Source of the DNA: a virus
Taxonomy: Duplodnaviria > Heunggongvirae > Uroviricota > Caudoviricetes
Reading direction: 5' to 3' (one strand)
DNA length: 64,000 nt
IMG/VR virus record: IMGVR_UViG_3300017971_007904
Shown here: piece by piece, positions 3,362-19,515 of the stretch
How positions within the stretch are numbered: position 1 is the stretch's first letter
Layout: each line of letters opens with the position of its first letter
Notes under the pieces: generated by a model
Database searches by the model: none
The model's input: the letters and a program-made list of their open reading frames with translations, nothing else
Told to the model about the DNA's origin: nothing
Translations under genes and position numbers: made by a program

Positions 3362-3762
3362 TACTCAAAAAGAGATGCGTCATAGATGGGGAGGTCTGAA
3401 ACATCAGTAGACTCCTCTGGGGAGTCCTCTGGAGACTTCTCTGGCGGCTCCGGTCGCTTTGTATTAACGGTTTTGAGTTCCGAGAGGGCTTCCTTGTAGA
3501 TTCTGGCGATCTCTTGGTTCATCATTTCCACAGGAGACTCGTAACCGGCGATAAAAGCGTCTTCGAGCATCTTCTTCAATTTCTTCGGGGAGAGGATGTA
3601 CTGATCCATGGGTTGCTCCTTTTTAACCGGCAAGGTTTCTCTGGTGGTATCAGAGCTATAACAGCTAGAAGAAGTCGCAGAATAGTTGGAATAAGTTCCG
3701 TAATTGGAGTAAGGCGAGCCCAATGCAGAAGAAGTTGTGCTTATTGGAATATACTTAGGCAT
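3349..3762 (-). CDS. hypothetical protein (Ser/Tyr-rich N-terminus)
   Basis: 137-aa ORF overlapping its neighbours by a few nt in an operon-like arrangement. Confidence 0.45.
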   Translation of the reverse strand: MPKYIPISTTSSALGSPYSNYGTYSNYSATSSSCYSSDTTRETLPVKKEQPMDQYILSPKKLKKMLEDAFIAGYESPVEMMNQEIARIYKEALSELKTVNTKRPEPPEKSPEDSPEESTDVSDLPIYDASLFEYWSP

Positions 3763-4345
3763 CGATCTCTTTCTCCTTTACCTGTTCTAGGTTGACGCCC
3801 GCCATGCGGAACAAACCCCGGCTTGATTTACTATAGTCAGCCGCCGTTTGGAGACATACGACCTTGGCAATCTTAGCTTGAATGATCTGAATAGCACATT
3901 CATGACAAGGAACACCACAGTAGCAGTACATCGTCGAACCAACCGTGCTTACGCCCGATTGGTTCGCCGATGCGAGGGCATTTCGTTCTGCATGAGCACA
4001 CGGACAGAGGTCGAGTCGCTCCCCTGAGGGGACGCCCATAATTCGTCTGGGGCAAACTTTTTTTCCTTCATAGGCTTCGAGGAACTGTTCGAGATTGTTG
4101 ACCTTTTGAAGTTTCAGGAAGTTCTTATCGTCACCCGTTAGGAGTTCTTCCCACATGTAGGTTAGGTATTCAGCAGAATCCGGATGTGGTACCTTCTCCG
4201 CAGCGCCGTTGTACCCTAACGAAATGATGCGATTATGCTTACTGACGAGTACAACGCCTATTTTGCGTGAATAGCATGCGTCGTTATCATCAGCTAGTGT
4301 TCGTGCTAGCTTCAGGTACTTCTTAGTCCACTTATTCATACTCAT
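3755..4345 (-). CDS. dCMP (deoxycytidylate) deaminase
   Basis: Intact zinc-deaminase motifs CAHAERNAL (HAE) and PCHEC (PCxxC); GYNG motif. Confidence 0.8.
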   Translation of the reverse strand: MSMNKWTKKYLKLARTLADDNDACYSRKIGVVLVSKHNRIISLGYNGAAEKVPHPDSAEYLTYMWEELLTGDDKNFLKLQKVNNLEQFLEAYEGKKVCPRRIMGVPSGERLDLCPCAHAERNALASANQSGVSTVGSTMYCYCGVPCHECAIQIIQAKIAKVVCLQTAADYSKSSRGLFRMAGVNLEQVKEKEIDA

Positions 4346-5322
4346 TCCTTTCCGAGAACCTTCTTAAGTGATGAAGTCATATAGAATTGCCCTCCGGTTT
4401 CGTACCATGTCTCTTCGTACATGCGACTGAAGTCCTTGATATCATCTACTGCCGCCTTGATGATACCGCCTCTCGACCCGATTAGGTCAGCGCAGGATAC
4501 GATCCAGGCTTCATTAGTCATGGGCTCAGCAGCGGCTCCGAACTCTCTTCGGGTGTGATGGCTGGCTACGATGTGACTCACCTCCCTCACGAACCAGTCA
4601 TCTGTTTGGAGCTTCCTGGCCACAAGCTGAATAAAGTTAAGACCTTTACAAGCATGACCAATGAGTGTTTCTTCGGGTCGATAGGCGGGTTGTCCGACAT
4701 CATTGATGGTGTAGGTGAATACTTTGCCGATATCATGTAGGGAGGCTCCTGCAAATACGACATCGCCGCTAAGTTGTTCTTTCCAGGGGAAGTATTCCAC
4801 GATACCCTTACAGATGTTTAACACTTCTGCCGTGTGGATGATGAGCCCCCCTTGGTAAGCGTGGTGAACTTTCTTTCCTGCTGGGCACTTCAACCACTCT
4901 TCCTTATGAATCCCTAAGCATGCTGCGACAAATTGGAAGTGTCGTTCATCGGCATAAAGGCTTTGGTCCATGATAGTCTTGTATGCTTCGGCGATATCTT
5001 CTTCCTCTGCTTTCGGGACCGCCAGAAGTATTTCGAGAATCTCGGGAGGAAGCTCGCTTCTATCGACACGTTGGAACATACCTGGGTCGAAGCTGATATC
5101 GTTATATTGGCCACCACGGTTATCACGCACGCCTTTGGTGTCGGTGTTGAAGCGAATAACTTCCCCCAATCTTGGGACATCTTCTTTGTCGGGATTCACA
5201 ATACCCCACATTGTGACTTTTACCTTCTTGTCTTTGTATGTTTGCAACATAAGCTGCCAGAAGGTAGTGCTTGGGAGTTTTTTGAAGTCTTCGTGTGTTA
5301 CGAGTCCAAGTATCTCACTCAT
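4342..5322 (-). CDS. HD-domain metal-dependent phosphohydrolase
   Basis: His (LIIHTAEV) ... HD (ASLHDIGK) ... downstream His/Asp pattern typical of the HD superfamily. Confidence 0.7.
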   Translation of the reverse strand: MSEILGLVTHEDFKKLPSTTFWQLMLQTYKDKKVKVTMWGIVNPDKEDVPRLGEVIRFNTDTKGVRDNRGGQYNDISFDPGMFQRVDRSELPPEILEILLAVPKAEEEDIAEAYKTIMDQSLYADERHFQFVAACLGIHKEEWLKCPAGKKVHHAYQGGLIIHTAEVLNICKGIVEYFPWKEQLSGDVVFAGASLHDIGKVFTYTINDVGQPAYRPEETLIGHACKGLNFIQLVARKLQTDDWFVREVSHIVASHHTRREFGAAAEPMTNEAWIVSCADLIGSRGGIIKAAVDDIKDFSRMYEETWYETGGQFYMTSSLKKVLGKE

Positions 5323-5563
5323 TGTTTTCCTCGTTGTCTGTAAAGATGTTACATATCTCCTGCTTCCAGGCGGTGTCGACGGTGCCTAGGAACTCGCATA
5401 GGACGACGGAGGTACCGGACCACCAGAAAGCGATAGCTTCAGGCGCAGCCCAAGCAAGATTTTGCTTACTTTCTTCAAGTGCGGCTGCCAAGTCTTCTTG
5501 ATACTCGAAGTCGTCAGGGATGAGGGGAATGATTCGGTCGATCACGTTTTGTAGGTTTCGCAT
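5315..5563 (-). CDS. hypothetical small protein
   Basis: 82-aa ORF overlapping the hldE 3' end by 50 nt. Confidence 0.35.
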   Translation of the reverse strand: MRNLQNVIDRIIPLIPDDFEYQEDLAAALEESKQNLAWAAPEAIAFWWSGTSVVLCEFLGTVDTAWKQEICNIFTDNEENNE

Positions 5564-6989
5564 CTTTGATCTTTTCTATCGTTTTGGTTGTCGAAAAGTC
5601 CTCTAATAAAGGGCATATGATAACCTCATCCACGAGGTTACCCCCTATTACTTTATCGGCATGATAGTCCCCTCCCTTTACCAAAATCTCCATGGGAGAG
5701 AGATTTCTGATCAAATTGTACACATCACCATCGAAAGGTACGACAAAGTCAACATGCTGCATAGAAGCGATAAGCCGCATTCTTTCATCAAGTGACTTAA
5801 TCGGTTTATCTGCGCCTTTCAAACGTTTGACGTTAGCATCGCTATCGATACCAACGATTAAGATATCGCCTTGTGCCTTAGCAAACTCCAGAACCCTGAG
5901 ATGCCCTTGGTGAAGTAGATCGAAGCAACCGTTTGTAAAAACCTTGGTGCCTCGCAATGTATCAAGATGTGGACCTAACCACTTGGCGTTGTTGAAAATC
6001 TTCGCTTCTATCGGGTCAATATGAGCGTGTAGTTCCCAAGGTGTTACAGGGTCGGTGTGTTTCTTCTGGACAAAGATGGATGAGGCGTGATTGGCGATAA
6101 TGGCTGACTCTTGGAAGTCGAAGTTCAATGCGTATGCCATTGCATAAACCGCAGCAAAGCAATCCCCCGCTCCGCTGTAACCTAATGGGTGACCAACCAC
6201 TGGCTTGTCCGACTTGTATGAAAGGGGAGGTTTCTTAGGAAGGTACGTTTGGACACCATCTGCGCCTTGTGTGATAACTAGTGCCTCGCAACGCACCTCA
6301 CTGAGAATATCCTCGTTGTAACCATTGATAGTTCGGCAGAAGTCTTCTGCTTCTTTTGCATTAGGTTTGAAGATGGTACAGTTCAACCATTGATCTATAG
6401 GTTCCAACTTGGGATCAACTAGTGTGGGCACACCATACTCGCTGCATAGCTCGATCAGGTCTTGGGCCATAGTTTCGTAGAACAAACCTTTGCCATAGTC
6501 GCTGAGTATGATGATATCGGGGTCTGATCCATAGACATACTTCTCAAATTTCTCAACGAGTTGTTTGCGAGCTTTGATAAGTGGGGCCCACTCGGGATCA
6601 TAGGATTCGATATCCCATCGGCATAGCGGTAGGTCTTTGTCGAAGAACCGTCGCTTCCTAGGTGTTTGATAGCCAAATGTTATGAGGTCGCACTTGAATC
6701 CAAAATCATGCAAAAGGCTTGCGGCGTTCTTATCGGTGATACCGAACAGGGTACAATCGACGTTAAATCCCGCAAATTGATACGCCACATTCGCAGCCCC
6801 GCCCGGTAATGTCATGGTGGGTTCTTGCACTTCAGACGCCAGAACAGGTATGGGAAATTCTGGGCTAATACGATTTACTGCGACCTGATAGAATTGGTCA
6901 AGCAACACATCGCCAACGACGGCGATCTTGAGTTTTTCGTCCTCTTGAGTGTTAAGGAACTCGTGGATAAGCGAAGTGATATTTCTCAT
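5514..6989 (-). CDS. hldE: bifunctional D-beta-D-heptose 7-phosphate kinase / D-beta-D-heptose 1-phosphate adenylyltransferase (ADP-heptose synthase)
   Basis: N-terminal pfkB/ribokinase-like domain (LAVVGDVLLDQF...GAGDCF) plus C-terminal cytidylyltransferase motif (FTNGCFDLLHQGHLRVLEFAK); 491 aa, matching HldE/RfaE size. Confidence 0.85.
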   Translation of the reverse strand: MRNITSLIHEFLNTQEDEKLKIAVVGDVLLDQFYQVAVNRISPEFPIPVLASEVQEPTMTLPGGAANVAYQFAGFNVDCTLFGITDKNAASLLHDFGFKCDLITFGYQTPRKRRFFDKDLPLCRWDIESYDPEWAPLIKARKQLVEKFEKYVYGSDPDIIILSDYGKGLFYETMAQDLIELCSEYGVPTLVDPKLEPIDQWLNCTIFKPNAKEAEDFCRTINGYNEDILSEVRCEALVITQGADGVQTYLPKKPPLSYKSDKPVVGHPLGYSGAGDCFAAVYAMAYALNFDFQESAIIANHASSIFVQKKHTDPVTPWELHAHIDPIEAKIFNNAKWLGPHLDTLRGTKVFTNGCFDLLHQGHLRVLEFAKAQGDILIVGIDSDANVKRLKGADKPIKSLDERMRLIASMQHVDFVVPFDGDVYNLIRNLSPMEILVKGGDYHADKVIGGNLVDEVIICPLLEDFSTTKTIEKIKDAKPTKRDRPNHSPHP

Positions 6990-7016: not shown

Positions 7017-7316
7017 TTATTCGCCTAGCACGAGATCGAGGAGTGCATAGTATGTATCGGAGATCAACTTGATACGATTAACCGGTGATCGAAATCGCCA
7101 CAACCATGATTTCTCTAGCAGACCGATTGCTTGTTGAAGAATCACAAAGTTGATCTTATTTTCTTCGAGGCTAATCTCTGAACGCTTCCATTGTTGAATC
7201 AAATCAGCAGGAATTGCGCCGCCCACGATAGCTTCGTGTTCGCCTCCGTAATCCTCATCGTACTCAAAATGTTGGTCTTCGTCTCCGAAAAAGTCACCCT
7301 CTCCAAATCTTTTCAT
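7017..7316 (-). CDS. hypothetical acidic protein
   Basis: 99-aa ORF adjacent to hldE. Confidence 0.45.
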   Translation of the reverse strand: MKRFGEGDFFGDEDQHFEYDEDYGGEHEAIVGGAIPADLIQQWKRSEISLEENKINFVILQQAIGLLEKSWLWRFRSPVNRIKLISDTYYALLDLVLGE

Positions 7317-8080
7317 TATTTAACCATTTGATAGGTGTATCTCATTTGTTGCCACAGTTTCACTACCTGTAGCTCATCTGCCGAGAGGTCTGCGTTCTTA
7401 ACGAACTCACTCACCTGGGCAAATGGAGCCTGTAACGTCTTACTGCGAATCCATTCATCTTTTACGAAAAGACCGAATTTGTTATAACGGGTGAAGACGC
7501 CCATCTCGGAGGTTTCGGACTTACAACAAAGTTGTGATATCATATCAGGAGGTCCCATGACGGATTCCATCATCTTCATCACGGCTTGTTTATCATCCTT
7601 ATTTTCATTCCAAAACTCTCCAAAGGTATTTAGTGCTTTAACGAACCTTTCATTGTCACCACTTTTGAAGTACCATAATGGGTCGCAAACACCGAATGTA
7701 ATGTTCGGATCATTGAGTTGTTCTAACACGTCTTTTGAAAGTGATCTCACCGCCATTACATCGGGGTCAATTACAAGAAGGGGCTCTTGTACGAAGCCCT
7801 CTTTCAGAGCAATACAAGTGGCGTAGAGTTTGTTCAGCGCCGGACAGTTGTGTTTGTTTCCTAAATTTTCATGCTGAAAGAAGCGGATGCCGCATCGGTA
7901 AGGCCAGTTGAAGGATAGCTGACTTCCTGTGAAGTTGCGGGAGCACAGCACACTTACCTCAGCGTCCGGTAGATGTTGATATATCGAAAACCACGAGGCA
8001 AATGCCATCCAATCCTGGTGTTGCGAGTAATCGCAAGACAGTAGTATATTGAGCCGGTCGCCGCCTGATGTAATTTCCAT
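7316..8080 (-). CDS. hypothetical protein
   Basis: 254-aa ORF, first gene of the leftward block. Confidence 0.55.
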   Translation of the reverse strand: MEITSGGDRLNILLSCDYSQHQDWMAFASWFSIYQHLPDAEVSVLCSRNFTGSQLSFNWPYRCGIRFFQHENLGNKHNCPALNKLYATCIALKEGFVQEPLLVIDPDVMAVRSLSKDVLEQLNDPNITFGVCDPLWYFKSGDNERFVKALNTFGEFWNENKDDKQAVMKMMESVMGPPDMISQLCCKSETSEMGVFTRYNKFGLFVKDEWIRSKTLQAPFAQVSEFVKNADLSADELQVVKLWQQMRYTYQMVK

Positions 8081-8191
8081 GCCTTAATATAGTGTGGTCG
8101 TCAGGGTCTTCGGGCAAATTAGTCTTGCCCCAGTTTTACTATGAAAGTACACTGACTGGCTGACACACTGACACAAACTAAGAGGTTTATC
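8081..8191. promoter_or_regulatory. divergent intergenic/promoter region between leftward and rightward gene blocks
   Basis: 111-nt gap between divergent starts; AGAGG SD before the ATG at 8192. Confidence 0.4.
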
Positions 8192-8635
8192 ATGTCCGAA
8201 GAGCCATTGCGAGAGAAGTTAAGCGAACAATTTCTGGAAGATTGGTCGCCTGATGATGCTCAGGTCCTTTCCATGTTAGACGGAAGCGTTCAATCACAAG
8301 GTCTCGCAGTCAGTCACCGGGATTGGCTTGATATGGGTTCTGAAAGTTGGGGTGACACTCCCGACAATGTAAAAGCCGCAGCATATCAAGCCGCACACCT
8401 TACTGGCTGGGATGATGCTCGACTACGACAGATAATGCTTCACGCCTACACACATCTGACCGACCATCTAATGGATACGACAATGGAATGTCTCCGTGGC
8501 TTGGCTATGAAGTTTCCTCTTCACGTCGAAGCCGATTCTGAGAAACCGGTTGAGGTTGAAATTCGTCGTGGCTTGCAACAAGTCAAAGAGATACGTGACG
8601 AAGACGCCGATGCCGAACAAGCCGAAGCAAAGTGA
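8192..8635 (+). CDS. hypothetical acidic protein
   Basis: 147-aa ORF with SD; first gene of the rightward operon. Confidence 0.55.
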   Translation: MSEEPLREKLSEQFLEDWSPDDAQVLSMLDGSVQSQGLAVSHRDWLDMGSESWGDTPDNVKAAAYQAAHLTGWDDARLRQIMLHAYTHLTDHLMDTTMECLRGLAMKFPLHVEADSEKPVEVEIRRGLQQVKEIRDEDADAEQAEAK

Positions 8636-8644
8636 GGATATGCC

Positions 8645-9463
8645 ATGGCCCGCCGCAGAAAAGTAGTGATAGGTTGTACGGAACCTTCATATTTCACCAA
8701 CGATGTCATTCGGATGATCGAGTTGTTCTACAAAGCCAACCCCATCAAACTTTGTCAGAACGACAGCACAAACCTGAGATACTGGCTCGATCAATGTGAT
8801 GCCGTCATCCTTTCGGGAGGAAAGGACATTCATCCACGCTGCTATGGCTTCTCGGTGATGAATGAATATGGTTACAGCAACTTCGATGTTGATCGTGACC
8901 ATCGTGAGATACGGATCATCAACTATTGCTTCAAGAAAAAGAAGCCGATGTTTGGTATCTGTCGGGGGCACCAAATGTTAGGTATTCGTCACAAGGTCAG
9001 GTTTATTCCCGATCTTTCCGGTGGCGTTGTTTGCCACCAACCGATGGCGCAGAAAATCAGTCACGATAGGAATGAGCCCATGCACTGGGTTCAACTCCTC
9101 AAAGACGCCGACAAGAAGTTCCAGGTCGAAGACCCGGATGCAAAGTCCCTTCCTTCTCGGCGTGCATCAGATACGCATTGGCTCTGGGTGAACTCTTTCC
9201 ACCACCAGGGCTTGTACTACGAAGAGGGTGAGAACGATCTCGTCGAGGTACTTGGTATTACCTCTGGTACTCGCAAGCACCAGATCATCGAACTCATGCG
9301 TGGAAAGAAGAATCCGTGGTTGTCATGTCAATGGCATCCCGAGTACGACTGGGAGTTCAACGCCGCCTCCCGAATGGTTTTGACTCGCTTCGCCGAGATG
9401 ATTAAAGGGTCACTGGCAAAACCCCCGGTCGACAAAAGGGCTGCCGCCATAACCAAGAGATAA
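8645..9463 (+). CDS. class-I glutamine amidotransferase-like / peptidase C26 (gamma-glutamyl hydrolase-like) protein
   Basis: Nucleophile elbow FGICRGHQMLG and downstream WHPEYD (His-Pro-Glu) consistent with a GATase1 Cys-His-Glu triad. Confidence 0.75.
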   Translation: MARRRKVVIGCTEPSYFTNDVIRMIELFYKANPIKLCQNDSTNLRYWLDQCDAVILSGGKDIHPRCYGFSVMNEYGYSNFDVDRDHREIRIINYCFKKKKPMFGICRGHQMLGIRHKVRFIPDLSGGVVCHQPMAQKISHDRNEPMHWVQLLKDADKKFQVEDPDAKSLPSRRASDTHWLWVNSFHHQGLYYEEGENDLVEVLGITSGTRKHQIIELMRGKKNPWLSCQWHPEYDWEFNAASRMVLTRFAEMIKGSLAKPPVDKRAAAITKR

Positions 9464-9476
9464 GGAGAAACGTGAG

Positions 9477-10994
9477 ATGAACAGAAACGCTGTTCTAGCA
9501 GGCGTCGTAGGAGCCGTCTGTTTGTTTGGTGTCCTAATGGTCATCATTGTCTACAACTGCTTCAGGATCGACGTGCCTAGCAAACACATCGCCGTCCTAA
9601 CGAAGCGAACTGGTCTCGATATCGAGAACCATCAGGAGATTTCCCCAGATGCCGACCACAAAGGTATCCAGCGGGACATCCTGACTGAGGGTCGATATTT
9701 CCGGAATCCCTACTCGTGGGACTGGGAGATCATCCCCATGATCGAGGTTCCCACTGGTAAGCTTGGGGTCCCCGTGCGGCTCGTGGGGGATGACTTACCC
9801 TACGGTGATATCATCGCATGGAAAGAGGAACAGAAAGGCGTTGTCCCTAATGTTCTGCGACCTGGACGATACGCCATCAACCCCTGGATTGAAAAGGTGG
9901 AGATGCACACGCCCGTGACGGTTCCTGCCGGTTTCAAGGGAATTGTCACATTGCTTGCAGCCCCGATGCCAACCGACCCCAATGTCTTGTTGGTCGAAGC
10001 GGGTAAACGAGGTCCACAGAAAGAGACGTTGAATCCGGGGACGTATTACGTCAACCCGTATGTCAAGCGAATCAATCTTATGGACTGCCGTAGCCAACGA
10101 TTCAATCTCGGCCAGAACAAGGACTTTGGCTTTCCGAGTAAGGACGGCTTCTGGGTGAAGCTGGATGGTATCATCGAGTTCCGAGTCAAGCCCGATATGG
10201 CAGCGGAGGTTTTCGTCACCTACAACGAAGTTAGCAATGACTACGAAGGTGAGCGAGTGGACGCCGAAGTGATCAACAAGATCATCCTGCCTAACGCCCT
10301 ATCGTTCTGTCGTTTGAGAGGCTCAAATAACACCGGACGGGACTTTGTTGGTGGGGATACACGTATCCAGTTCCAAGAGGATTTCCAAAAGGCGATGCGA
10401 GCGGCCTGTGATCCGCTTGGCGTTGAGATTATTCAGGCTCTTGTTACGAAGATCGAACCGCCCGATGCCATCGCCTCCCCGATTCGGGATCGAGAGGTCG
10501 CCGAACAACGCTTGGGTCAGTACACACAACAGATCATTCAGCAGCAAAGTGAGAAGGCTCTTGAGATCGAGAAGGCACTCATCGAGCAGAAGAAGGAACT
10601 TATTGGTGCTGAACAGGAAGTTGTCGTGATGACGGTTAAGGCAAAAGAGGAACAGCAAGTTGCTGTGACTAAGGCCAATGAGAACCTTGGTGTGGCCCAA
10701 TTCAAACTGGAGGCCGCTAAGGATGAAGCACTTGCCATCGAAGCAAGAGGTAAGGCTACGGCGGACGTGATCATGTTCGACAACGCAGCCGAGGCTGCGG
10801 GGTGGAAACGTGCTGTCGCTGCGTTTAGTGGTAGCGGTCACGAGTACGCCAAGTATGTCCTCTACACCAAGTTGGCACCCGGCTTTAGGAGCATCATGGC
10901 CAATACAGCCGACTCGCCGCTGATGGAAATCTTCAAGGATTTCCGAAAGACCTCCCAATTCGCCCCGGTTCGATCTGCCCCGGCGACCCGTTAA
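9477..10994 (+). CDS. SPFH/band-7 (flotillin/YqiK-like) membrane protein, paralog 1
   Basis: N-terminal transmembrane helix; long C-terminal coiled coil with Ala/Glu-rich flotillin-like tail (EQRLGQY...KATADVIMFDNAAEAAGWKRAV..FSGSG). Confidence 0.65.
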   Translation: MNRNAVLAGVVGAVCLFGVLMVIIVYNCFRIDVPSKHIAVLTKRTGLDIENHQEISPDADHKGIQRDILTEGRYFRNPYSWDWEIIPMIEVPTGKLGVPVRLVGDDLPYGDIIAWKEEQKGVVPNVLRPGRYAINPWIEKVEMHTPVTVPAGFKGIVTLLAAPMPTDPNVLLVEAGKRGPQKETLNPGTYYVNPYVKRINLMDCRSQRFNLGQNKDFGFPSKDGFWVKLDGIIEFRVKPDMAAEVFVTYNEVSNDYEGERVDAEVINKIILPNALSFCRLRGSNNTGRDFVGGDTRIQFQEDFQKAMRAACDPLGVEIIQALVTKIEPPDAIASPIRDREVAEQRLGQYTQQIIQQQSEKALEIEKALIEQKKELIGAEQEVVVMTVKAKEEQQVAVTKANENLGVAQFKLEAAKDEALAIEARGKATADVIMFDNAAEAAGWKRAVAAFSGSGHEYAKYVLYTKLAPGFRSIMANTADSPLMEIFKDFRKTSQFAPVRSAPATR

Positions 10995-11027
10995 GTCAAC
11001 CATTCCGAATAAGTAAGGAGAAATATC

Positions 11028-12620
11028 GTGAATATGCAAAAGCTTAAGCTGATTGCAATAAGCATCGGCGTTGTGTTGTTTGTTGCGTTCTTTTTCGTCT
11101 GGACCGTCAACAGGGTCTACGTCCCCGAGGGCAAGAGTCTCTTGCTTCGATACAAGGGCCCACTGGTCTTCGGTAAGCGAGATATGGCCCCGAAGGGCCA
11201 CTTCGCCGCAGAGGGCCAAATCGGTGTTCGAGCAAAGCTGCGAGGTCCTGGTCGCCACTTCTACTGTCCCGTTTGGTGGGAGAGGACGATTGTGGATGAT
11301 CAAGTTGTCAAGCCGGGACAAGTGGCCATTGTTCGTTCCATGCTTGGTGACAATTTACCCTCTGGCCAATATCTCGTCGACGGCGAGCTTGGACAAACAA
11401 AGCACAAGGGTATTCTCCGCAAGGCGTATGCGCCAGGACGATACAGGGTTAACCCTTATGCCTACGAGTTTCAGATCGTAGAAGTCGTGAAGCAGAATGT
11501 CGGTAAACAGGTGAAGCATTCGGGGTGGGTAAGTATCCCCACCGGCTATGTCGGTGTTTGTACGAACCTTACGGATATCCCCCAACGCAAGCAAGTGACC
11601 GGTATCCAATCGAAAGTTCTGCCGCCCGGCATCTATCCTGTTAATAGTAAGGAACAACAGATCGACATCGTCGAGATCGGTTTCAGAGAAACCAGTGTTC
11701 ATGCCGAGCTACAACGGGATAGTGACGGTCAAGTGATACTGGACGATACTGGTGAACCGCAAATTGCGGATCAATCAACCGGCATCAACTACCCGAGTAA
11801 CGACGGGTTCCCCATCGTGATGGATTGGACCGCCATCTGGGGTATCATGCCCGATCAGGCACCGGAGGCCATCCGTACTTTCGGAGACGTTGATGCGGTC
11901 GAACAGAAGGTTGTCCTTCCTCAGACCGAGTCCATATGTAGGAATAAGGGCTCTCAGCACTCCGCTGTTGAACTCCTGGTTGGCGAACAACGCCAACAGT
12001 TCCAACTGGACGCCTCCGATGCCTTCCGTAATGTGCTGAAAGAGAAGAACCTCACTCTTCTCTACGGTTTGGTAAGCCACATCTACATTCCCCAAAGTGT
12101 GCGCAAGCCAATCCAGACAAAGTACATCGCCGACGAACTCAAGCTAACCAAAGACCAAGAGCAGAAAACTGCGAAGGTCGAAGCTGATCTGCGTGAGGCG
12201 GAAAGGCAGGTGGGCTTGGAAGGTGAACGAGTGAAATCTGACACGAGGAAGAAAGTTGCGGAAGCTATCGCCATGGGTCGTAAGACGGTTGGTGAAACGC
12301 ATGCCGAAACTACGAAGCTCGTGGCAGCCATCGATAAGGAGGTGGCCGAGTTAGAAGCCCAAGCAACCGTCGTGTTGGGTGAGGCGAGAGCCAACGCTGA
12401 GAAGATGCAAAAGGAGGCGAGATCGCAGAAGTTTGCGCTCGCCGTCGAAGCGTTTGGTTCCGGTTCCGCCTACAACGAGTGGGTGTTCGCTACTGGCCTG
12501 CCGGATGATGTAGACCTCAAGCTGCTATACGCAGGGGAGGGTACGTTCTGGACCGATGTCGACGGGTTCACGAACAAGCTCCTAGGCAAGCAGGAGAGGG
12601 AGCGTCAGAAGAGGAAATAA
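11028..12620 (+). CDS. SPFH/band-7 (flotillin/YqiK-like) membrane protein, paralog 2
   Basis: N-terminal TM helix; same domain order and similar C-terminal tail (…ANAEKMQKEARSQKFALAVEAFGSGSAY…) as the upstream paralog. Confidence 0.65.
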   Translation: MNMQKLKLIAISIGVVLFVAFFFVWTVNRVYVPEGKSLLLRYKGPLVFGKRDMAPKGHFAAEGQIGVRAKLRGPGRHFYCPVWWERTIVDDQVVKPGQVAIVRSMLGDNLPSGQYLVDGELGQTKHKGILRKAYAPGRYRVNPYAYEFQIVEVVKQNVGKQVKHSGWVSIPTGYVGVCTNLTDIPQRKQVTGIQSKVLPPGIYPVNSKEQQIDIVEIGFRETSVHAELQRDSDGQVILDDTGEPQIADQSTGINYPSNDGFPIVMDWTAIWGIMPDQAPEAIRTFGDVDAVEQKVVLPQTESICRNKGSQHSAVELLVGEQRQQFQLDASDAFRNVLKEKNLTLLYGLVSHIYIPQSVRKPIQTKYIADELKLTKDQEQKTAKVEADLREAERQVGLEGERVKSDTRKKVAEAIAMGRKTVGETHAETTKLVAAIDKEVAELEAQATVVLGEARANAEKMQKEARSQKFALAVEAFGSGSAYNEWVFATGLPDDVDLKLLYAGEGTFWTDVDGFTNKLLGKQERERQKRK

Positions 12621-12625
12621 CCCCC

Positions 12626-12961
12626 TTGTCGCCCCACCACCACCGGCGAAGCGAAAGCCGGTGGTGGTGGTTTTGTTATTCGAGGTATGTAGTGGTTAAG
12701 AAAAAAAGACGGCGAAAACGAAAGCGGGAACTCCGTTACGTTGCAGTTTGTGTTGACGGTCGACATATCGTTATCGGTCTGGATACGATCAGGGAGTATC
12801 GAGAGTTAGACAACGGCTTCATGTTCAAGTCGGGCTCGTTAGACTACTACTCTCCGTACTTCTTTCCTCACCATGACCTTGATATGGCTTGGCGATTCGC
12901 CAACAACTGTGCCGACGCCGAGAAGAAAGCTGACAAGATGATATGTCCCGATAAAGCATGA
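12626..12961 (+). CDS. hypothetical ORF (N-terminus coincides with terminator hairpin; real start probably internal or ORF spurious)
   Basis: 111-aa ORF whose first ~18 codons are the terminator stem; no SD. Confidence 0.2.
   Translation: MSPHHHRRSESRWWWFCYSRYVVVKKKRRRKRKRELRYVAVCVDGRHIVIGLDTIREYRELDNGFMFKSGSLDYYSPYFFPHHDLDMAWRFANNCADAEKKADKMICPDKA
12634..12680 (+). terminator. Rho-independent terminator
   Basis: CCACCACCACCGGC / GCCGGTGGTGGTGG 14-bp stem, 9-nt loop, then TTTTGTTATT. Confidence 0.75.
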
Positions 12962-12970
12962 GGTGACGCC

Positions 12971-13210
12971 ATGTTCAAATGTGGATTCTGTGGAAAGGAT
13001 GTTCCCCCTGGCATCAAAAGCACGGAGGTTATTACAAGAAGACGAAAGAAGGTTTATCCGTTTCGCCAAGATGCAAACCGGACGGCCACATGGAAGGAAG
13101 AGAAGGCCGACCGGCTGGCAAGTCAGAACGACAGTGGTGGCATCGGATGGGAGGCTGCGGAGACAGAGATCGCATGTCCTCAGTGTGTTAGAGCACGAGC
13201 CGAGAGCTAA
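12971..13210 (+). CDS. small zinc-ribbon protein
   Basis: CGFCG ... CPQC paired CxxC motifs. Confidence 0.5.
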   Translation: MFKCGFCGKDVPPGIKSTEVITRRRKKVYPFRQDANRTATWKEEKADRLASQNDSGGIGWEAAETEIACPQCVRARAES

Positions 13211-13229
13211 CAGTGTCTGCGAGGGAGCG

Positions 13230-13266
13230 AAATGCCCGCCCCGTCTAACGGGGCGGGCATTTCTAT
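13230..13266 (+). terminator. Rho-independent terminator
   Basis: AAATGCCCGCCCCG / CGGGGCGGGCATTT stem with 5-nt loop followed by T-rich tract. Confidence 0.8.
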
Positions 13267-13296
13267 TGACCTACAGGTCCTTGGTGTGGTTTAATG
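13266..13296 (+). promoter_or_regulatory. sigma70-like promoter (TTGACC, 18 nt, TGgTTTAAT extended -10) giving a near-leaderless transcript
   Basis: -35 TTGACC at 13266-71 and extended -10 TGGTTTAAT at 13287-95; ATG of the downstream gene at 13304 is only ~8 nt past the -10. Confidence 0.5.
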
Positions 13297-15694: not shown

Positions 15695-15735
15695 TTGGAA
15701 ACCAGCAGGATTGACCCGCAATTTTGGAGGTAGCT

Positions 15736-17898
15736 ATGTCCACCGAGAATCCGGCCCCAGCCAGTGCCGTCGACAATGGTCAATCGACCTTTGATAAACT
15801 GGCCAAATCTTTCGACTGTGAAGAGTTCCGCAAGCTCACAACTGAGATGACCTTCTCCGAGTATCTCGAAGAGGCCGAGCGGAACCCCCTGGTGTGCCTC
15901 AGCGCCTACCAGAGAATCTACGACATGGTTCTTTCCGCTGGTGTCGAGCGCATCAAGCGGTTCAACAGAACCTTCACCCGCTACAAGTTCTTCGCCGAAC
16001 ATCCGGAGTTTCCGATCTACGGCCTGGAACAGGCCATCGACGGCTTCGTTGGCAACCTGAAAGGTGCCGCTGGGTACTATGGTACCGAAAAGCGAATCCT
16101 CCTGTTGCACGGCCCGGTCGGCTCGTCGAAGTCCACCGCTGTCCGAGCGCTCAAGCGGGGCTTGGAAGAGTACACCATGACGGATCGGGGTGCCCTCTAT
16201 ACCTTCGATTGGATTGACCTACCCGTCGAAGACGACGACGACGGCCCCGGCCTGGAGCTTCGCAAAATTGCGCCGTGCCCCATGCAGGACGACCCCGTCA
16301 AACTCATCCCGCCCGGCCCGATGCGAAAAGAGATGGAGAAGAAGCTCAACGTCGCATTGGAGAACATGAAACTCAGCGATGACGAAGCCGTCGACGCCGA
16401 GCTTCACCGCATCTTCAAGATTCGCCTGGATGGTGAACTCAACCCGCACGACAAGTTCTTCTACCGTGAGTTGCTTCGTCGCTACAAGGGCGACTGGCGG
16501 AGGGTCATGGAGAAGCACATTCGTGTGCGGCGTGTCGTCCTCTCCGAGTCCGACCGTGTCGGCATCGGTACGTTCAGCCCCAAGGACGAGAAGAACCAGG
16601 ATTCGACGGAGTTGAGTGGCGATGTCAACTATATGAAGTTGGGCCAGTACGGTGTCGACTCCGACCCCCGTGCCTTCAACTTTGATGGTGAGTTCGAGGT
16701 GAGCAACCGAGGGCTCTTGGAGATGATCGAAATGCTCAAACTCAACCAGGAGTTCTTGTACGACCTCCTGGGGGCAGCACAAGAGCGACAGATCAAACCC
16801 AAGAAGTTCCCGCAGGTTGGCATCGACGTGTGCATCCTCGGCCACACCAACGATCCGGAATACCAGAAGCTCCTCAAAAACGAGTGCATGGAGGCGCTGA
16901 AGGATAGGACGATTCGGGTCGACTGGCCCTACGTCCTTCGTTGGGAAGACGAGATCAATGTCCTTCGTCACGACTACAACCAGGAAAGGGTTCGACAGCA
17001 CATCGCTCCCCACACCATCGAGATCGCAGCGCTGTTCGCAATTCTCACCCGGTTGAAGACCGACAAGAACATCAAGCTCGATCCGGTCAAGAAGGCCAAG
17101 CTCTACAACGGCCAGACCGTCCCCGGCTATACGGAAGAAGCCGTCAAGGAGTTGATGGACGCCGAACCGTCCGAGGGTATGGACCAGGGCATCAGCGCCC
17201 GTTACGTCCAGAACAAGCTGTCGAACTCCCTCGTGTCCCACCACGACTACGTCAACCCGTTCATGGTTCTCCACGAACTGAAAGAGGGTCTGAAGACCTA
17301 CTCCCTCGTCGGTGACAACGAAAACCGTCGTGCGTTCTACGAGACGTGCGTCGACCTCGCCAAGAAGGAGTTGGACGAGATTCTCAAGAACGAGGTTCGT
17401 CGGGCTCTCGTTATGGACGATGAAGCCATCAGTCGGATGTTCACCTCGTACTTGGACAACGTCTTCGCCTATATCAACAACGAGAAGGTGAAGAACGAGT
17501 ACACCGGTGAGTTCGAGGAACCGAATGAGCGGTTGATGCGGTCCATCGAAGAGAAGATCGACGTTCCCGATCAGGGTGTCGACGACTTCCGCCGCAGCAT
17601 CGCCGCTTACGTCGGCCACATCACCCGCAACGAGGGCGAGAAGGCCCTCAAGTGGGACAGCAACCCCGATCTTGCAAGGGCACTGGAATTGAAGCTGTTC
17701 GAGGAAACGAAGGACAGCATCAAGCTCAGCAGCCTTACCAAGGTCACCGGCGTCATCGACCCGGATATGCAAGAGAAGATCAACCAGATCAAAACCCGGT
17801 TGGTCAAAAACTACGGTTACGACGAGCGCAGTGCGACCGACGTGTTGAACTACGTCGGCTCCATCTTCGCCCGTGGTGACATGGTCGAACAGCAGTAA
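15736..17898 (+). CDS. prkA: PrkA/YeaG-family serine protein kinase (AAA+ N-terminal domain)
   Basis: Walker A LLLHGPVGSSKST in a PrkA-type AAA domain; 721 aa from the ATG at 15736 (GGAGG SD); the C-terminal half matches the PrkA kinase region. Confidence 0.85.
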   Translation: MSTENPAPASAVDNGQSTFDKLAKSFDCEEFRKLTTEMTFSEYLEEAERNPLVCLSAYQRIYDMVLSAGVERIKRFNRTFTRYKFFAEHPEFPIYGLEQAIDGFVGNLKGAAGYYGTEKRILLLHGPVGSSKSTAVRALKRGLEEYTMTDRGALYTFDWIDLPVEDDDDGPGLELRKIAPCPMQDDPVKLIPPGPMRKEMEKKLNVALENMKLSDDEAVDAELHRIFKIRLDGELNPHDKFFYRELLRRYKGDWRRVMEKHIRVRRVVLSESDRVGIGTFSPKDEKNQDSTELSGDVNYMKLGQYGVDSDPRAFNFDGEFEVSNRGLLEMIEMLKLNQEFLYDLLGAAQERQIKPKKFPQVGIDVCILGHTNDPEYQKLLKNECMEALKDRTIRVDWPYVLRWEDEINVLRHDYNQERVRQHIAPHTIEIAALFAILTRLKTDKNIKLDPVKKAKLYNGQTVPGYTEEAVKELMDAEPSEGMDQGISARYVQNKLSNSLVSHHDYVNPFMVLHELKEGLKTYSLVGDNENRRAFYETCVDLAKKELDEILKNEVRRALVMDDEAISRMFTSYLDNVFAYINNEKVKNEYTGEFEEPNERLMRSIEEKIDVPDQGVDDFRRSIAAYVGHITRNEGEKALKWDSNPDLARALELKLFEETKDSIKLSSLTKVTGVIDPDMQEKINQIKTRLVKNYGYDERSATDVLNYVGSIFARGDMVEQQ

Positions 17899-17923
17899 CG
17901 CTCGCTGGGTTAGGGACGACCAG

Positions 17924-17966
17924 CCCCCACCTGTCGCTGCACGCTGCGACAGGTGGGGGCATTTTA
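17924..17966 (+). terminator. Rho-independent terminator after prkA
   Basis: CCCCCACCTGTCGC / GCGACAGGTGGGGG 14-bp stem followed by ATTTT. Confidence 0.7.
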
Positions 17967-17979
17967 CCCGAGGTTTGTC

Positions 17980-18258
17980 ATGGTCAAGTACGTTAACTTT
18001 CAGGTTCCCGGTTTTGGTTCGGTTGTGTCGGTCGAGTCGGGGCATTCGCTCGTCCGGTTGGCCCAGTTGCCGTTAGAAGATGCTATCGTTGCCCTGAAGG
18101 ATTGGGGTAAGAAGTTTCGCAAAAGGTTGATACAGCAATCAGCAACCCCACGAGACCGTTATACCGAATTGGCCCCTTATAACAACCCTCAAGGTTACAC
18201 GGAGCAATCTGCCCAGGATGTTTTCAATCACGTAGGTCAACTACTGGCCACTTCGTAG
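17980..18258 (+). CDS. small protein resembling the PrkA C-terminal tail
   Basis: ATG with GAGG SD; C-terminus GYTEQSAQDVFNHVGQLLA parallels the PrkA C-terminus GYDERSATDVLNYVGSIFA. Confidence 0.4.
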   Translation: MVKYVNFQVPGFGSVVSVESGHSLVRLAQLPLEDAIVALKDWGKKFRKRLIQQSATPRDRYTELAPYNNPQGYTEQSAQDVFNHVGQLLATS

Positions 18259-18268
18259 GAGGTGCAAC

Positions 18269-19501
18269 ATGCCACGGCGCATACAAGAAGATCATAAGAT
18301 GTTCCGAGACGTAGTGTCCGGAACCACAAGACGGGAGTTGAAGAAGTGGATTAAGAGTGGTCGTATCGTCCGCCGTCGAGGTAAGGACAAGCTTGCCATT
18401 CCGATCCCCCGAATCGACCTCCCGCATTTCATATTCGGTAGGCCGACCGAAGGCATCGGTCGGGGGCCCGGCAAGGATGGTGACAAGGTCGGTGAAGAAC
18501 CTGCCCCAAATCAAGGCGACGGGGCCAGCACCGATCCAGGTGATGCCATCCTGGTCGATGTCGACATGGAACGAATCCTCAAGGAAATGGGCGAGGATTG
18601 GGGCTTGCCGAACATGCTCCCGAAAGAGAACGCCACTTTCGAGGAAGTGAAGATTCGGTACAACAGCTTGTCGAAGATCGGCCCGCCGAGTTTGCTTCAC
18701 AAGCGGAAGACCATTCTTCAAACCCTCAAACGTATGTCGGCCATGGGCCAGTTGGGTCCGGAGAACGCACGGATACTCCCCGGTTACAACGTGCCCGTCA
18801 CGCCGCTGATTCCAATCAAGGATGATATGCGGTTTCGCAAGTGGACGGAGCAGCGCATCCCGTCCAGCAACGCCGTCATCTTCTTCGCCCGTGATATCTC
18901 GGGTTCGATGACGACATACAAGTGCGAGATCGTTTCGGACATGGCGTGGTGGATCGATATGTGGATTCGCCAGTTCTATGAAAAAACTGAGCGGGTCTAC
19001 GTTGTTCACGACACCCGTGCCAAAGAAGTCGACGAAGAACGGTTCTACAAGCTCAGGATGGGTGGTGGAACCATTTGCAGTAGCGCACTGAGGTACATCG
19101 CCAAACAGTTGAAGCATCGCTATCCCCCGGAGAAATGGAACGTGTACGTGTTCTATTTTTCGGACGGCGACAACTGGATGGACGACAACGACAAGTTCGT
19201 CAAGGTTCTCCGTGATGACCTTCCGCCCGACAAGGTCAACTTGTTTGGCATGACGCTGATTCTTCCCTGGTGCCAGGAGGGGCTCAAGGAACACCTGGAT
19301 GCTTTGATCAAGAATGGCAAGCTTGACAACAAGTTCATCCGTACCACCGGCATTGATCGTCCGGACAAGGATAAGAACGACCGGTGGGGTTGGTGGTGGT
19401 GGGACGAAACCATGGATGAAGATGCCCGTAACGATGCCATCCGCAACGCTATCCGAGAGTTGCTGGGGGCTCACGATCAGGCTTCCGAAAAAGCCGCATA
19501 A
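18269..19501 (+). CDS. yeaH: YeaH/YhbH-family DUF444 (vWA-like) protein
   Basis: vWA-like core FFARDISGSM...YVFYFSDGDNW; size and position between prkA and spoVR as in bacterial yeaG-yeaH-ycgB loci. Confidence 0.85.
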   Translation: MPRRIQEDHKMFRDVVSGTTRRELKKWIKSGRIVRRRGKDKLAIPIPRIDLPHFIFGRPTEGIGRGPGKDGDKVGEEPAPNQGDGASTDPGDAILVDVDMERILKEMGEDWGLPNMLPKENATFEEVKIRYNSLSKIGPPSLLHKRKTILQTLKRMSAMGQLGPENARILPGYNVPVTPLIPIKDDMRFRKWTEQRIPSSNAVIFFARDISGSMTTYKCEIVSDMAWWIDMWIRQFYEKTERVYVVHDTRAKEVDEERFYKLRMGGGTICSSALRYIAKQLKHRYPPEKWNVYVFYFSDGDNWMDDNDKFVKVLRDDLPPDKVNLFGMTLILPWCQEGLKEHLDALIKNGKLDNKFIRTTGIDRPDKDKNDRWGWWWWDETMDEDARNDAIRNAIRELLGAHDQASEKAA

Positions 19502-19515
19502 TTGGAGGTGCAACC

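Follow-up and report, generated by a model that had tools for sequence, protein, structure and literature searches.

The locus described here, found in a window of 64,000 nucleotides (the whole stretch of DNA analyzed), is probably a composite operon of a huge phage that carries two unrelated cargo modules, in which an SPFH cassette captured from Planctomycetota would form a membrane cage while the adjacent hydrolase would serve a separate purpose. Module 1 would comprise an acidic 147-aa protein and a cytoplasmic PuuD/Peptidase C26-type gamma-glutamyl hydrolase, and module 2 would be a cassette of two anciently diverged SPFH paralogs that appears in Planctomycetota as a widespread self-contained chromosomal operon. 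An earlier note had not recognized the locus as a described system, which was overstated, since paired SPFH operons (HflK/HflC) and virus-encoded SPFH proteins were already known.

Organization of the Locus

The open reading frames lie on the plus strand at the coordinates originally assigned to them, and gene calling on the source contig returned the same genes. The features are as follows.

8081–8191, no strand assigned: presumed promoter region, intergenic between the operon and a divergent 254-aa gene on the minus strand
8192–8635, plus strand: acidic helical protein, 147 aa (pI 4.5, 31 Asp + Glu)
8645–9463, plus strand: Peptidase C26/PuuD-type class-I glutamine-amidotransferase-fold hydrolase (GATase), 272 aa
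9477–10994, plus strand: SPFH1, first SPFH/Band_7 paralog, 505 aa, with Band_7 match
11028–12620, plus strand: SPFH2, second SPFH/Band_7 paralog, 530 aa, GTG start, with Band_7 match
12634–12680, plus strand: intrinsic terminator closing the four-gene operon (14-bp stem, UUUUGUUAUU tail)
12692–12961, plus strand: basic protein, 89 aa, without assigned function, also called on the source contig
12971–13210, plus strand: zinc-ribbon-like protein, 79 aa (C4-x2-C7 and C69-x2-C72)
13229–13268, plus strand: second intrinsic-terminator-like hairpin (16-bp stem)

Co-transcription of the first four genes is suggested by intergenic gaps of only 9, 13, and 33 nt and by a strong terminator directly 3' of SPFH2. 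Both terminators that had been proposed were recovered. The first is a perfect 14-bp stem at 12634–12670 with a 9-nt loop, followed by UUUUGUUAUU; none of 200 shuffled sequences was as stable (−32.6 kcal/mol, z −5.0), and a simple scanner missed it because of its 9-nt loop. The second, which was also on the scanner list, is a perfect 16-bp stem at 13229–13263 with a 3-nt loop (−33.2 kcal/mol, z −7.8). The promoter region postulated 5' of position 8192 did not emerge from the motif search, which found two sigma-70-like sites against 4.2 expected, none above chance, and the hairpin at 8112–8130 is weak and not significant (z −0.6). We place a putative promoter of the composite operon near 8100–8190, from which modules 1 and 2 would be transcribed together up to the terminator at 12634–12680. 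Of the two small proteins previously called zinc ribbons, the description fits the 79-aa protein with its two CxxC pairs, which is kept in the related loci L091 (62% identity) and L093 (50%) and has no homolog beside the SPFH pair in host genomes. It does not fit the 89-aa protein, which contains three Cys but no CxxC pair and, among the relatives' loci compared, has a homolog only in L091/L092 (52% identity).

The Acidic Protein and the Peptidase C26-Type Hydrolase

The assignment of the 272-aa protein to the class-I amidotransferase/C26 family was borne out by Pfam matches above the curated cut-offs to Peptidase_C26 (1.2e-24) and GATase (1.5e-12), and the triad Cys106-His231-Glu233 is unchanged across 28 homologs. 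By sequence it matches Lin1909 (3fij, 2.6e-9) and PuuD (6vtv, 3.3e-7) in the PDB, and it shares with these enzymes and with gamma-glutamyl hydrolase the class-I fold and the location of the triad in GICRGHQ and QWHPE motifs; like them it is a stand-alone enzyme lacking a synthase domain. Against the NCBIfam PuuD equivalog model it reaches 42 bits (cut-off 266). Unlike PuuD, its homologs are all metagenomic (154 of 154, none with the name of a cultured organism), many of them on huge-phage-sized contigs of up to 585–614 kb, and its neighborhood of ThyA/ThyX and DHFR is not a polyamine-utilization context. Neither a signal peptide nor a membrane segment was found in the GATase. Homologs of the acidic protein are likewise exclusively metagenomic.

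In nine GATase loci without SPFH genes (L095–L103, some of them near-duplicates), the gene order is acidic protein, GATase, ThyA/ThyX, DHFR: the acidic protein lies upstream in seven, ThyA or ThyX follows directly downstream in eight, and DHFR comes next in six. The acidic protein is a conserved upstream partner of the GATase, and only in the clade of the window (four contigs) does the SPFH pair fill the ThyA/DHFR slot. Because module 1 stands upstream of ThyA/ThyX and DHFR in related phages, its role most likely lies in thymidylate/folate or nucleotide metabolism, with the folate role drawn from gene neighborhood only; the hydrolase might trim gamma-glutamyl conjugates, which would be its putative substrates.

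A possible but less likely reading is that the GATase does not serve folate metabolism but acts together with an HldE-like kinase/nucleotidyltransferase and an HD phosphohydrolase in a gamma-glutamyl pathway linked to nucleotides, candidates being a route of the CDP-glutamine type, like the one used to make phosphoramidate, or one of DNA-base hypermodification. HldE-like PfkB + cytidylyltransferase and HD genes do lie within a few kb of this hydrolase, both in the window and in L091, L093, L095, L096, and L101, and thymidylate-synthase homologs also start base-hypermodification pathways. The best NCBIfam match of the GATase is moreover gamma-glutamyl-CDP-amidate hydrolase (1.9e-11), but this match spans only residues 42–114 and scores 44 bits where the cut-off is 250. 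Adjacency to ThyA/DHFR is also steadier than that to HldE: in L097, L098, L099, L102, and L103, ThyA and DHFR are present, whereas the region read contains no gene resembling HldE.

Architecture and Topology of the SPFH Proteins

The SPFH identity of both paralogs was confirmed by Pfam Band_7 matches above the curated cut-offs (SPFH1, 4e-28, residues 179–359; SPFH2, 4.7e-19, residues 169–386). Each has the single N-terminal hydrophobic helix and the flotillin-like tail that had been noticed, a long helix rich in Ala, Glu, Gln, and Lys (Ala 17–19%, Glu 14–15%), and they are about 25% identical over nearly their full length. In trees, the SPFH1 and SPFH2 clades are reciprocally monophyletic, and SPFH2 is an ancient paralog of SPFH1. 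The AF2 model of SPFH1 (pLDDT 79.8, about 90 across residues 1–330) consists of the N-terminal transmembrane (TM) helix, three homologous beta-modules, the SPFH core, and the long helix, and SPFH2 has the same architecture. Triplication of the N-terminal beta-module, backed by hhalign at 95–98% probability, is an unusual feature of this family. Foldseek matches of SPFH1 include prohibitin, major vault protein (MVP), HflK/C, erlin, flotillin, QmcA, and stomatin (E 1e-11 to 1e-8).

With regard to topology, K + R in the 15-residue flanks of the TM helix amount to 2.95 on the N-terminal versus 1.47 on the C-terminal side in SPFH1 homologs and to 2.11 versus 1.28 in SPFH2 homologs. This family-wide charge bias of the bacterial homologs suggests that the bulk of the proteins lies outside the cytoplasmic membrane; in the phage copies, the N-terminal tails are very short and their own bias is ambiguous (1 versus 2 K/R).

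Comparison With Known Systems

The SPFH pair resembles Escherichia coli HflK/HflC, which constitute SPFH3 of Hinderhofer et al. 2009 (PMC2636767), in being adjacent, apparently co-transcribed, anciently diverged paralogs, each with one N-terminal TM helix, a bulk predicted to be periplasmic, and an SPFH core followed by a long helix. HflK/HflC structures are also among the Foldseek matches (7vhq, 7wi3, 9cz2, 9paw; E 1e-10 to 1e-6). However, no NCBIfam HflK or HflC model matches at E < 0.01, the hhalign probability against E. coli HflK is 3.4%, and the BLASTP match to HflC is confined to the C-terminal helix; the pair furthermore has about 150 extra residues from the triplicated module and no linkage to hflX. 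Prohibitin-1/2, erlin-1/2, and flotillin-1/2 are likewise paired paralogs, which build one ring or cage, and their cages are among the top Foldseek matches (9o9z, 2.6e-11; 9vvg, 3.8e-10; 9l3g, 2.9e-9), with prohibitin as the only PDB match by sequence profile (E 0.009). These are, however, eukaryotic organelle or plasma-membrane proteins of 11–21% identity that lack the triplicated N-terminal module, and a Pfam Flot domain was not detected in SPFH1 or SPFH2. In MVP, too, small beta-repeats in series lead into an SPFH-like shoulder and then a long cap helix, and its Foldseek alignment of 550–590 columns is the longest of any family (9r86, 3.5e-11). TM-scores are nevertheless low (0.15–0.2), Pfam Vault or MVP_shoulder domains do not match the SPFH proteins, and MVP is soluble with nine repeats while the proteins of the pair are membrane-anchored with three. 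The resemblance is limited to domain order.

Databases already contain many SPFH proteins encoded by viruses. Stand-alone SPFH/Band 7 genes of phages and giant viruses are represented by PHROG 200 and occur in the T4-like phages 44RR, Aeh1, and RB43, Rhizobium phage Pasto, Vibrio phage pVa5, and mimivirus-like viruses; as in the present case, they encode viral membrane proteins of the SPFH type. Database records and the ORF list of PMC1524935 give them as single proteins, mostly of 170–510 aa, with one Harvfovirus protein of 802 aa, and in GenBank phages the sole tblastn match to SPFH1 is 21% identical.

Distribution and Origin of the SPFH Pair

Of 92 loci whose downstream sequence extends far enough, 91 have SPFH2 immediately 3' of SPFH1 (median gap between the two tblastn matches 178 nt); these loci come from some 80 genomes of Planctomycetota together with several contigs of huge phages. 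SPFH1 and SPFH2 also show correlated pairwise distances (r = 0.95). Clustering of the host flanks in 79 loci revealed no conserved neighbor, the best cluster occurring in 10, and no linked FtsH or other client gene. The SPFH pair is thus a self-contained two-gene cassette. Among its 1519 homologs, all named ones belong to Planctomycetota, including the complete chromosomes CP036275 and CP087563. The window clade with L091, L093, and L094 (bootstrap 100, NJ, concatenated alignment) nests within the bacterial radiation in paralog-rooted NJ trees, although its placement beside any particular Planctomycetota lineage is weak (bootstrap 32–59). Because the window's copies are 56–66% identical to Planctomycetota chromosomal proteins and nested among them, the cassette is host-derived, a capture of host genes rather than a new three-part system. 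Compared with L091, SPFH1 and SPFH2 are 76 and 73% identical, while most adjacent genes reach 33–60%; this strong conservation in phages points to selection.

We consider it rather unlikely that the phage copy has a phage-specific membrane task unlike the host function, such as superinfection exclusion, lysis timing via holin/protease control, anti-defense membrane protection, or a membrane-bound infection compartment. The phage copies no longer carry the long, basic N-terminal tail that their bacterial counterparts have, the pair is kept in several distinct huge-phage lineages that differ in GC and gene context (L002, L084–L089), and stand-alone SPFH genes recur across many unrelated phages and giant viruses, all of which would suit such a task. 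Yet the 56–66% identity to host proteins and the retention of all invariant positions argue for a conserved biochemical function, PADLOC returned no match, and no linked phage-specific partner is conserved across phage lineages.

The hydrolase had been proposed as the partner of the SPFH proteins, with the trio as a conserved unit. Such a unit is indeed kept within one clade: the acidic protein-GATase-SPFH1-SPFH2 block recurs in L091/L092, L093, and L094 (SPFH1 66–76% identical), where the segment around it is inverted relative to the window. The close spacing, the shared terminator, and this persistence in all four contigs despite inverted surroundings would fit a single module in which the cage scaffolds or regulates the hydrolase, in parallel to stomatin-NfeD or HflK/C-FtsH. 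We nevertheless judge this improbable, as the clade has general synteny and, around the pair elsewhere, homologs of the GATase, the acidic protein, or the small proteins were absent within 8–10 kb in 80 Planctomycetota loci, seven IMG/VR loci, L002, and L003 (for the GATase, about 80 host genomes and eight other phage loci). Conversely, the GATase orthologs in L095–L103 have no SPFH gene nearby and keep the acidic protein and ThyA/ThyX, and a hydrolase without export signal or membrane segment is at odds with an SPFH bulk predicted to be periplasmic. The GATase hence belongs to a separate thymidylate/folate gene set.

Viral Context and Host

The source contig of about 340 kb has relatives in IMG/VR, one of which (L084) has Baseplate_J beside the SPFH pair, and several window proteins match PHROG families. 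No structural or virion gene was identified within the 64-kb window, and the phage assignment therefore rests on relatives and on gene content, which includes a DnaE that is split and carries an intein, a tRNA synthetase, overlapping genes, and numerous small ORFans. That the window instead stems from a chromosome or megaplasmid of Planctomycetota with a resident SPFH operon, as the lack of virion genes and a GC content of 49% (50–53% in some Planctomycetota loci) might suggest, is very improbable, given that the flanking genes are missing from all 80 Planctomycetota loci, that the GATase and acidic-protein homologs have the metagenomic, partly huge-phage distribution described above, that the DnaE-type polymerase is closest (40% identity) to that of the 595-kb uncultured phage LR756511.1, and that huge phages typically have such a gene content. 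The host of this huge phage is probably a member of the Planctomycetota.

Proposed Function of the Captured Cassette

By analogy to HflK/HflC and the paired prohibitins, erlins, and flotillins, SPFH1 and SPFH2 would co-assemble as an alternating hetero-oligomeric cage, anchored in the cytoplasmic membrane via the N-terminal helices and with its bulk in the periplasm. Three stacked beta-modules and the SPFH core would build the wall and the long helices the roof. An action on FtsH or membrane organization, as suggested earlier, is plausible, with an FtsH-type protease as candidate client. Most likely, the phage would thus supply an HflK/C-like, periplasm-facing cage, and this copy may during infection maintain or reprogram an enclosed patch of membrane, which would control the membrane proteins residing there.

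Organization of the Locus

The region 8192–13268 contains six ORFs on the plus strand, and gene calling on the public source contig (Logan SRR6963591) recovers the same six. These genes and two hairpins are arranged as follows:

8192–8635, plus strand: acidic protein, 147 aa, pI 4.5
8645–9463, plus strand: Peptidase_C26/class-I amidotransferase-like hydrolase (GATase), 272 aa; Pfam Peptidase_C26 (1.2e-24) and GATase (1.5e-12)
9477–10994, plus strand: SPFH1, 505 aa; Pfam Band_7 (4e-28) at residues 179–359
11028–12620, plus strand: SPFH2, 530 aa, GTG start; Pfam Band_7 (4.7e-19) at residues 169–386
12634–12670: hairpin 1, perfect 14 bp, followed by UUUUGUUAUU; -32.6 kcal/mol, z -5.0; directly 3' of the SPFH2 stop
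12692–12961, plus strand: 89-aa protein
12971–13210, plus strand: 79-aa protein with two CxxC pairs
13229–13263: hairpin 2, perfect 16 bp; -33.2 kcal/mol, z -7.8; 3' of the 79-aa gene

The first four genes are separated by 9, 13, and 33 nt, and the SPFH pair and the unrelated hydrolase module are predicted to share one transcription unit. The ORFs, the acidic character of the 147-aa protein and both terminator hairpins described in the earlier note are borne out by the sequence. The profile searches for which that note had called return Band_7 for both SPFH proteins and Peptidase_C26 plus GATase for the 272-aa protein, all exceeding the curated Pfam cut-offs. As ORFs, domains, isoelectric point, and hairpins all hold, the observation is confirmed apart from two details: of the two small proteins taken for Zn-ribbons the 79-aa protein fits the description while the 89-aa protein lacks the two CxxC pairs, and the supposed promoter region is not supported, a scan for sigma-70-like promoters yielding nothing above chance.

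The SPFH Pair Is a Planctomycetota Cassette

The SPFH pair is a host-derived and self-contained cassette of the Planctomycetota. SPFH1 has 1519 homologs, the best of which are metagenomic (66–76% identity), and the named homologs, such as those from Calycomorphotria hydatis, Maioricimonas rarisocia, Pirellulales, and Phycisphaeraceae, all belong to the Planctomycetota (56–66% identity). On the M. rarisocia chromosome a second Band_7 gene directly follows the SPFH1 homolog and no amidotransferase is found nearby. An alignment-based scan using one genome per species revealed 255 loci; the best 80 of these 255, which were taken further, are all from Planctomycetota except for two MAGs labelled Chitinophaga, and these two cluster with Planctomycetaceae sequences in the tree. 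Viral loci were likewise recovered by alignment-based scanning, while a single-sequence scan of IMG/VR found nothing. Among the GenBank phages, tblastn of SPFH1 gave one distant match (21% identity) and megablast of the 5-kb locus gave none.

All proteins of the window were compared by tblastn with the 80 host loci, with L002 (a phage contig carrying the pair), with L003, and with seven IMG/VR loci. SPFH2 lies immediately 3' of SPFH1 throughout, and within 8–10 kb of the pair none of these loci has a match to the GATase or the acidic protein, to either small protein, or to any of the downstream genes. The pair is present in 91 of the 92 loci having enough downstream sequence. The one exception is the viral contig L090 (IMG/VR 3300015360_000142), on which an SPFH1 homolog stops after its first 236 residues (1047–1772) and no SPFH2 follows in the 10 kb downstream; gene decay or an error of assembly may account for this truncated gene. 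Clustering of the flanking ORFs in 79 host loci showed no conserved neighbour of the pair, the best cluster being present in 10 of the 79, and neither NfeD nor FtsH nor a hydrolase partner recurs beside it there.

SPFH1 and SPFH2 share approximately 25% identity, their clades are reciprocally monophyletic, and their pairwise distances correlate with r = 0.95 (85 loci). The pair is therefore ancient and is both inherited and transferred as a unit; with this degree of identity between reciprocally monophyletic paralogs, a recent tandem duplication is rejected.

Phage Setting and Capture of the Pair

The window appears to derive from the genome of a huge phage. Its 64 kb revealed no virion gene, and the assignment therefore rests on gene content and on relatives. 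The gene content includes a PrkA-DUF444-SpoVR trio, a ClpP-like protein, an intein-bearing DnaE-type polymerase, the catalytic domain of a Glu/Gln-tRNA synthetase, and numerous ORFans, and proteins identical to the GATase and the acidic protein are encoded on a contig of 339,821 bp. The DnaE-type polymerase is split over two separate ORFs, of which the first (22665–25193) contains PHP, a Hint/LAGLIDADG intein and the pol III alpha NTPase domain, and the second (32300–34936) matches phrog_405 and has its best GenBank-phage match in LR756511.1, a 595-kb uncultured phage (40% identity). At 15724–21144, PrkA (AAA_PrkA plus PrkA C-terminal domain), a 92-aa ORF, DUF444/YeaH, and SpoVR follow each other; the trio is kept at 47–81% identity in all relatives of the window's phage group, and which side of the GATase locus it occupies varies between lineages. 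For the Ralstonia jumbo phage RsoM2USA, a comparable set has been reported (PMC8504454). Further genes encode a response-regulator receiver-PAS protein (1152–2012), a ClpP-like protease (21321–21989) situated away from the SPFH genes and without NfeD features, and the class-I Glu/Gln-tRNA synthetase catalytic domain (28415–29743). On the minus strand, at 3755–6989, a dCMP deaminase, an HD phosphohydrolase, and an HldE-like PfkB kinase/cytidylyltransferase fusion form a cluster. In the relatives, the HldE-like and HD genes follow the GATase or SPFH genes and share their strand; they may act in the metabolism of nucleotides or nucleotide sugars.

In neighbour-joining (NJ) trees the window groups with its closest SPFH-bearing relatives L091, L093, and L094 (bootstrap 100 for the concatenated and 92–93 for the single proteins), and L002 joins them with moderate support (65). 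The whole group falls inside the bacterial radiation, and its placement as sister to a group that contains a Phycisphaerales MAG as well as the complete chromosome CP087563 is only weakly supported (bootstrap 32–59). Six other viral contigs (IMG/VR L084–L089; 48–527 kb, GC 35–43%) carry the pair in unrelated contexts, in L084 adjoining Baseplate_J and an intein-bearing ribonucleotide reductase, and they are dispersed among bacterial sequences in the NJ tree. This scatter of the viral copies suggests more than one capture of the cassette, at an NJ resolution too low for counting the events. At least two distinct huge-phage lineages (L002 and L084), and probably others, keep the pair.

The phage was shown to maintain the Planctomycetota pair under strong constraint: compared with L091, SPFH1 and SPFH2 are 76 and 73% identical, whereas most adjacent genes reach 33–60%. 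The long basic N-terminal tail of the SPFH proteins is lost in the phage copies. Compared with L091, L093, and L094, the window has one segment in the opposite orientation, at approximately 7017–13270, from the 99-aa and 254-aa minus-strand genes through the 79-aa gene; inverted repeats were looked for at its borders and none was found.

The GATase Belongs to a Different Module

The earlier note had proposed that the hydrolase and the SPFH pair could work as a single membrane microdomain or protease-regulation module. Its survey of genomic context can be answered in two parts: the block of acidic protein, GATase, SPFH1, and SPFH2 is retained in L091/L092, L093, and L094, which stem from different samples, but in the loci compared outside the clade of the window the trio is absent and the pair occurs without a GATase. 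GATase orthologs with 42–51% identity are present in nine further loci of relatives (L095–L103, some being near-duplicates), none of which has an SPFH gene. An acidic-protein homolog precedes the GATase in seven of the nine, ThyA or ThyX follows it in eight, DHFR then comes in six, and an HldE-like kinase/nucleotidyltransferase gene is near in three, one of these also having an HD gene. Within the 64-kb window neither ThyA nor ThyX nor DHFR is found. Comparing these nine loci with the window clade, the SPFH pair thus fills the thymidylate synthase/DHFR slot, in one clade only. The GATase therefore belongs to a module other than the SPFH pair, together with thymidylate/folate genes, and the trio is not supported as a functional unit, since no GATase occurs within 8–10 kb of the pair in the 80 host loci and the GATase orthologs of the nine loci lack SPFH genes and mostly precede ThyA/ThyX.

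Membership of the GATase in its fold and family is supported by 87.8 bits for Peptidase_C26 (cut-off 20.5) and 48 bits for GATase (cut-off 22.8), and a Cys106/His231/Glu233 triad is invariant in 28 homologs. Among proteins of known structure, Lin1909 and PuuD are nearest to it. However, it scores 42.1 bits against the PuuD equivalog NF008471 (cut-off 266) and, over residues 42–114 only, 44.4 bits against the gamma-glutamyl-CDP-amidate hydrolase NF045546 (cut-off 250), and falls far below both cut-offs. All 154 homologs are metagenomic, on contigs of up to 585–614 kb, and no name of a cultured organism is among them; tblastn in GenBank phages finds generic GATases alone (25–28% identity). The protein has no hydrophobic segment, so it is presumably cytoplasmic. 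The gene context suggests a folate- or thymidylate-linked gamma-glutamyl hydrolase. The family of the acidic protein is very small, its representatives numbering 42 in a set of 1.84 billion proteins; the protein is helical with the invariant core GSVQSQG...WLDMGS...KAAAYQA, and a structural search gave no informative match.

Architecture and Topology of the SPFH Proteins

Both proteins are members of PF01145, with Band_7 scores of 99.1 bits for SPFH1 and 69.6 bits for SPFH2 (cut-off 23.6). The AF2 model of SPFH1 (mean pLDDT 79.8, approximately 90 over residues 1–330) comprises a TM helix at 3–29, a beta-rich part to approximately 237, the SPFH alpha/beta core to 331, and a long helix at 334–449; it thus combines the SPFH fold with an N-terminal membrane anchor and a long oligomerisation helix. 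The structural model covers SPFH1 alone, and SPFH2 aligns to SPFH1 over residues 10–491. Foldseek against the PDB matches SPFH1 to 62 chains at E ≤ 0.001, and the 50 of these that were listed are all SPFH-family proteins or major vault protein (MVP). Prohibitin (2.6e-11), MVP (3.5e-11; approximately 560 columns), and HflK/C (3.6e-10) lead, followed by erlin, flotillin, QmcA, and stomatin, at identities of 11–21%. These matches are of similar significance across the families, and the fold therefore picks no subfamily.

Residues 30–93, 94–150, and 151–212 of SPFH1 are homologous copies of each other (hhalign probability 95–98%, E 1e-12 to 3e-8), the third being the normal start of Band_7. The N-terminal beta-module is thus triplicated, in SPFH1 at residues 30–212 (window 9564–10112) and at the equivalent region of SPFH2, and this is common to host and phage copies. 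The triplication characterises the Planctomycetota family as a whole and is not specific to the phage copy. Lys/Arg residues flanking the TM segment amount to 2.95 on the N-terminal versus 1.47 on the C-terminal side for SPFH1 and 2.11 versus 1.28 for SPFH2 in approximately 90 homologs, the phage copies alone being ambiguous; the bias across the family favours an N-in orientation that would place the bulk of the proteins outside the membrane.

Relation to Known SPFH Systems

The locus is not a new kind of system. The earlier note did not recognise it as a described one; operons with two SPFH genes and hetero-oligomeric cages of SPFH proteins are well established, and viral SPFH proteins are already known. 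SPFH/Band 7 ORFs of T4-like phages have been listed since 2006 (PMC1524935), PHROG 200 matches both SPFH1 and SPFH2, and SPFH proteins are common among predicted viral structures, in giant viruses as well as in phages of Rhizobium and Vibrio. The classification of 2009 (Hinderhofer et al., PMC2636767) names Planctomycetes for SPFH5 only, and its small unnamed subfamilies, e.g., SPFH11a/b, may include the Planctomycetota pair. In a limited literature library, no description was found of the Planctomycetota pair, of the triplicated module, of an SPFH pair borne by any phage, or of the Planctomycetota pair in huge phages.

With HflK/HflC the pair shares the arrangement of two adjacent paralogous SPFH genes in one operon, with a gap of 33 nt in the window. 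However, neither protein matches any NCBIfam family at E ≤ 0.01, E. coli HflK is aligned by hhalign with a probability of only 3.4%, the BLASTP match to E. coli HflC is confined to the C-terminal helix (E 3e-4), and ftsH is linked to the pair in none of the 79 host loci. SPFH1 resembles MVP in domain order only: MVP forms a soluble shell, whereas SPFH1 has a TM anchor and the pair has no Vault or MVP_shoulder match in Pfam. The pair also differs from flotillin/FloT-YqiK, as Pfam at E ≤ 0.01 detects Band_7 alone and no flotillin-type C-terminal domain, and flotillin structures rank below prohibitin, HflK/C, and erlin in Foldseek. Stomatin-NfeD (SPFH1/STOPP) differs in that none of the window neighbours matches NfeD; as no neighbour family recurs in the 79 host loci either, partnership with an NfeD-type protease is rejected. 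An anti-phage defence system is rejected, PADLOC-DB giving no match at E ≤ 0.01 for any of eight proteins.

Proposed Function and Significance

By analogy to solved SPFH complexes, SPFH1 and SPFH2 would alternate in a membrane-anchored ring or cage, with the long helices as its roof and the triplicated module extending its wall. Such a cage would enclose a patch of the cytoplasmic membrane on the periplasmic face and control the proteins inside, and its client might, speculatively, be a protease, with FtsH as one candidate, or a transporter. The phage copy could sustain or re-programme this function once host expression fails, which is equally speculative.

A more far-reaching version can be formulated, according to which the cage on the periplasmic face would be vault-like and unusually tall, owing to three beta-modules stacked beneath the SPFH core. 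On this view, huge phages that infect Planctomycetota would have captured the pair repeatedly because it would allow them to remodel or compartmentalise the peculiar invaginated membranes of their hosts during infection, e.g., by setting apart a zone of membrane in which replication, assembly, or the control of lysis takes place. Lacking the cytoplasmic tail, the phage version would be an uncoupled or dominant form of the complex found in the host. That vault-like cage, repeated capture, and altered phage variant all hold jointly appears very improbable to us.

At this locus, close adjacency in a phage genome misled the functional reading, and the hydrolase goes with thymidylate/folate genes. 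Moreover, a well-sampled gene transfer points to Planctomycetota as the probable host lineage for a clade of uncultured huge phages. Being widespread in Planctomycetota, endowed with a triplicated N-terminal module, strongly conserved, and kept by phages, the pair is marked as important for membrane physiology. Some planctomycetes have been reported to be genetically tractable, and the SPFH pair is a tractable target in a phylum with unusual membranes.
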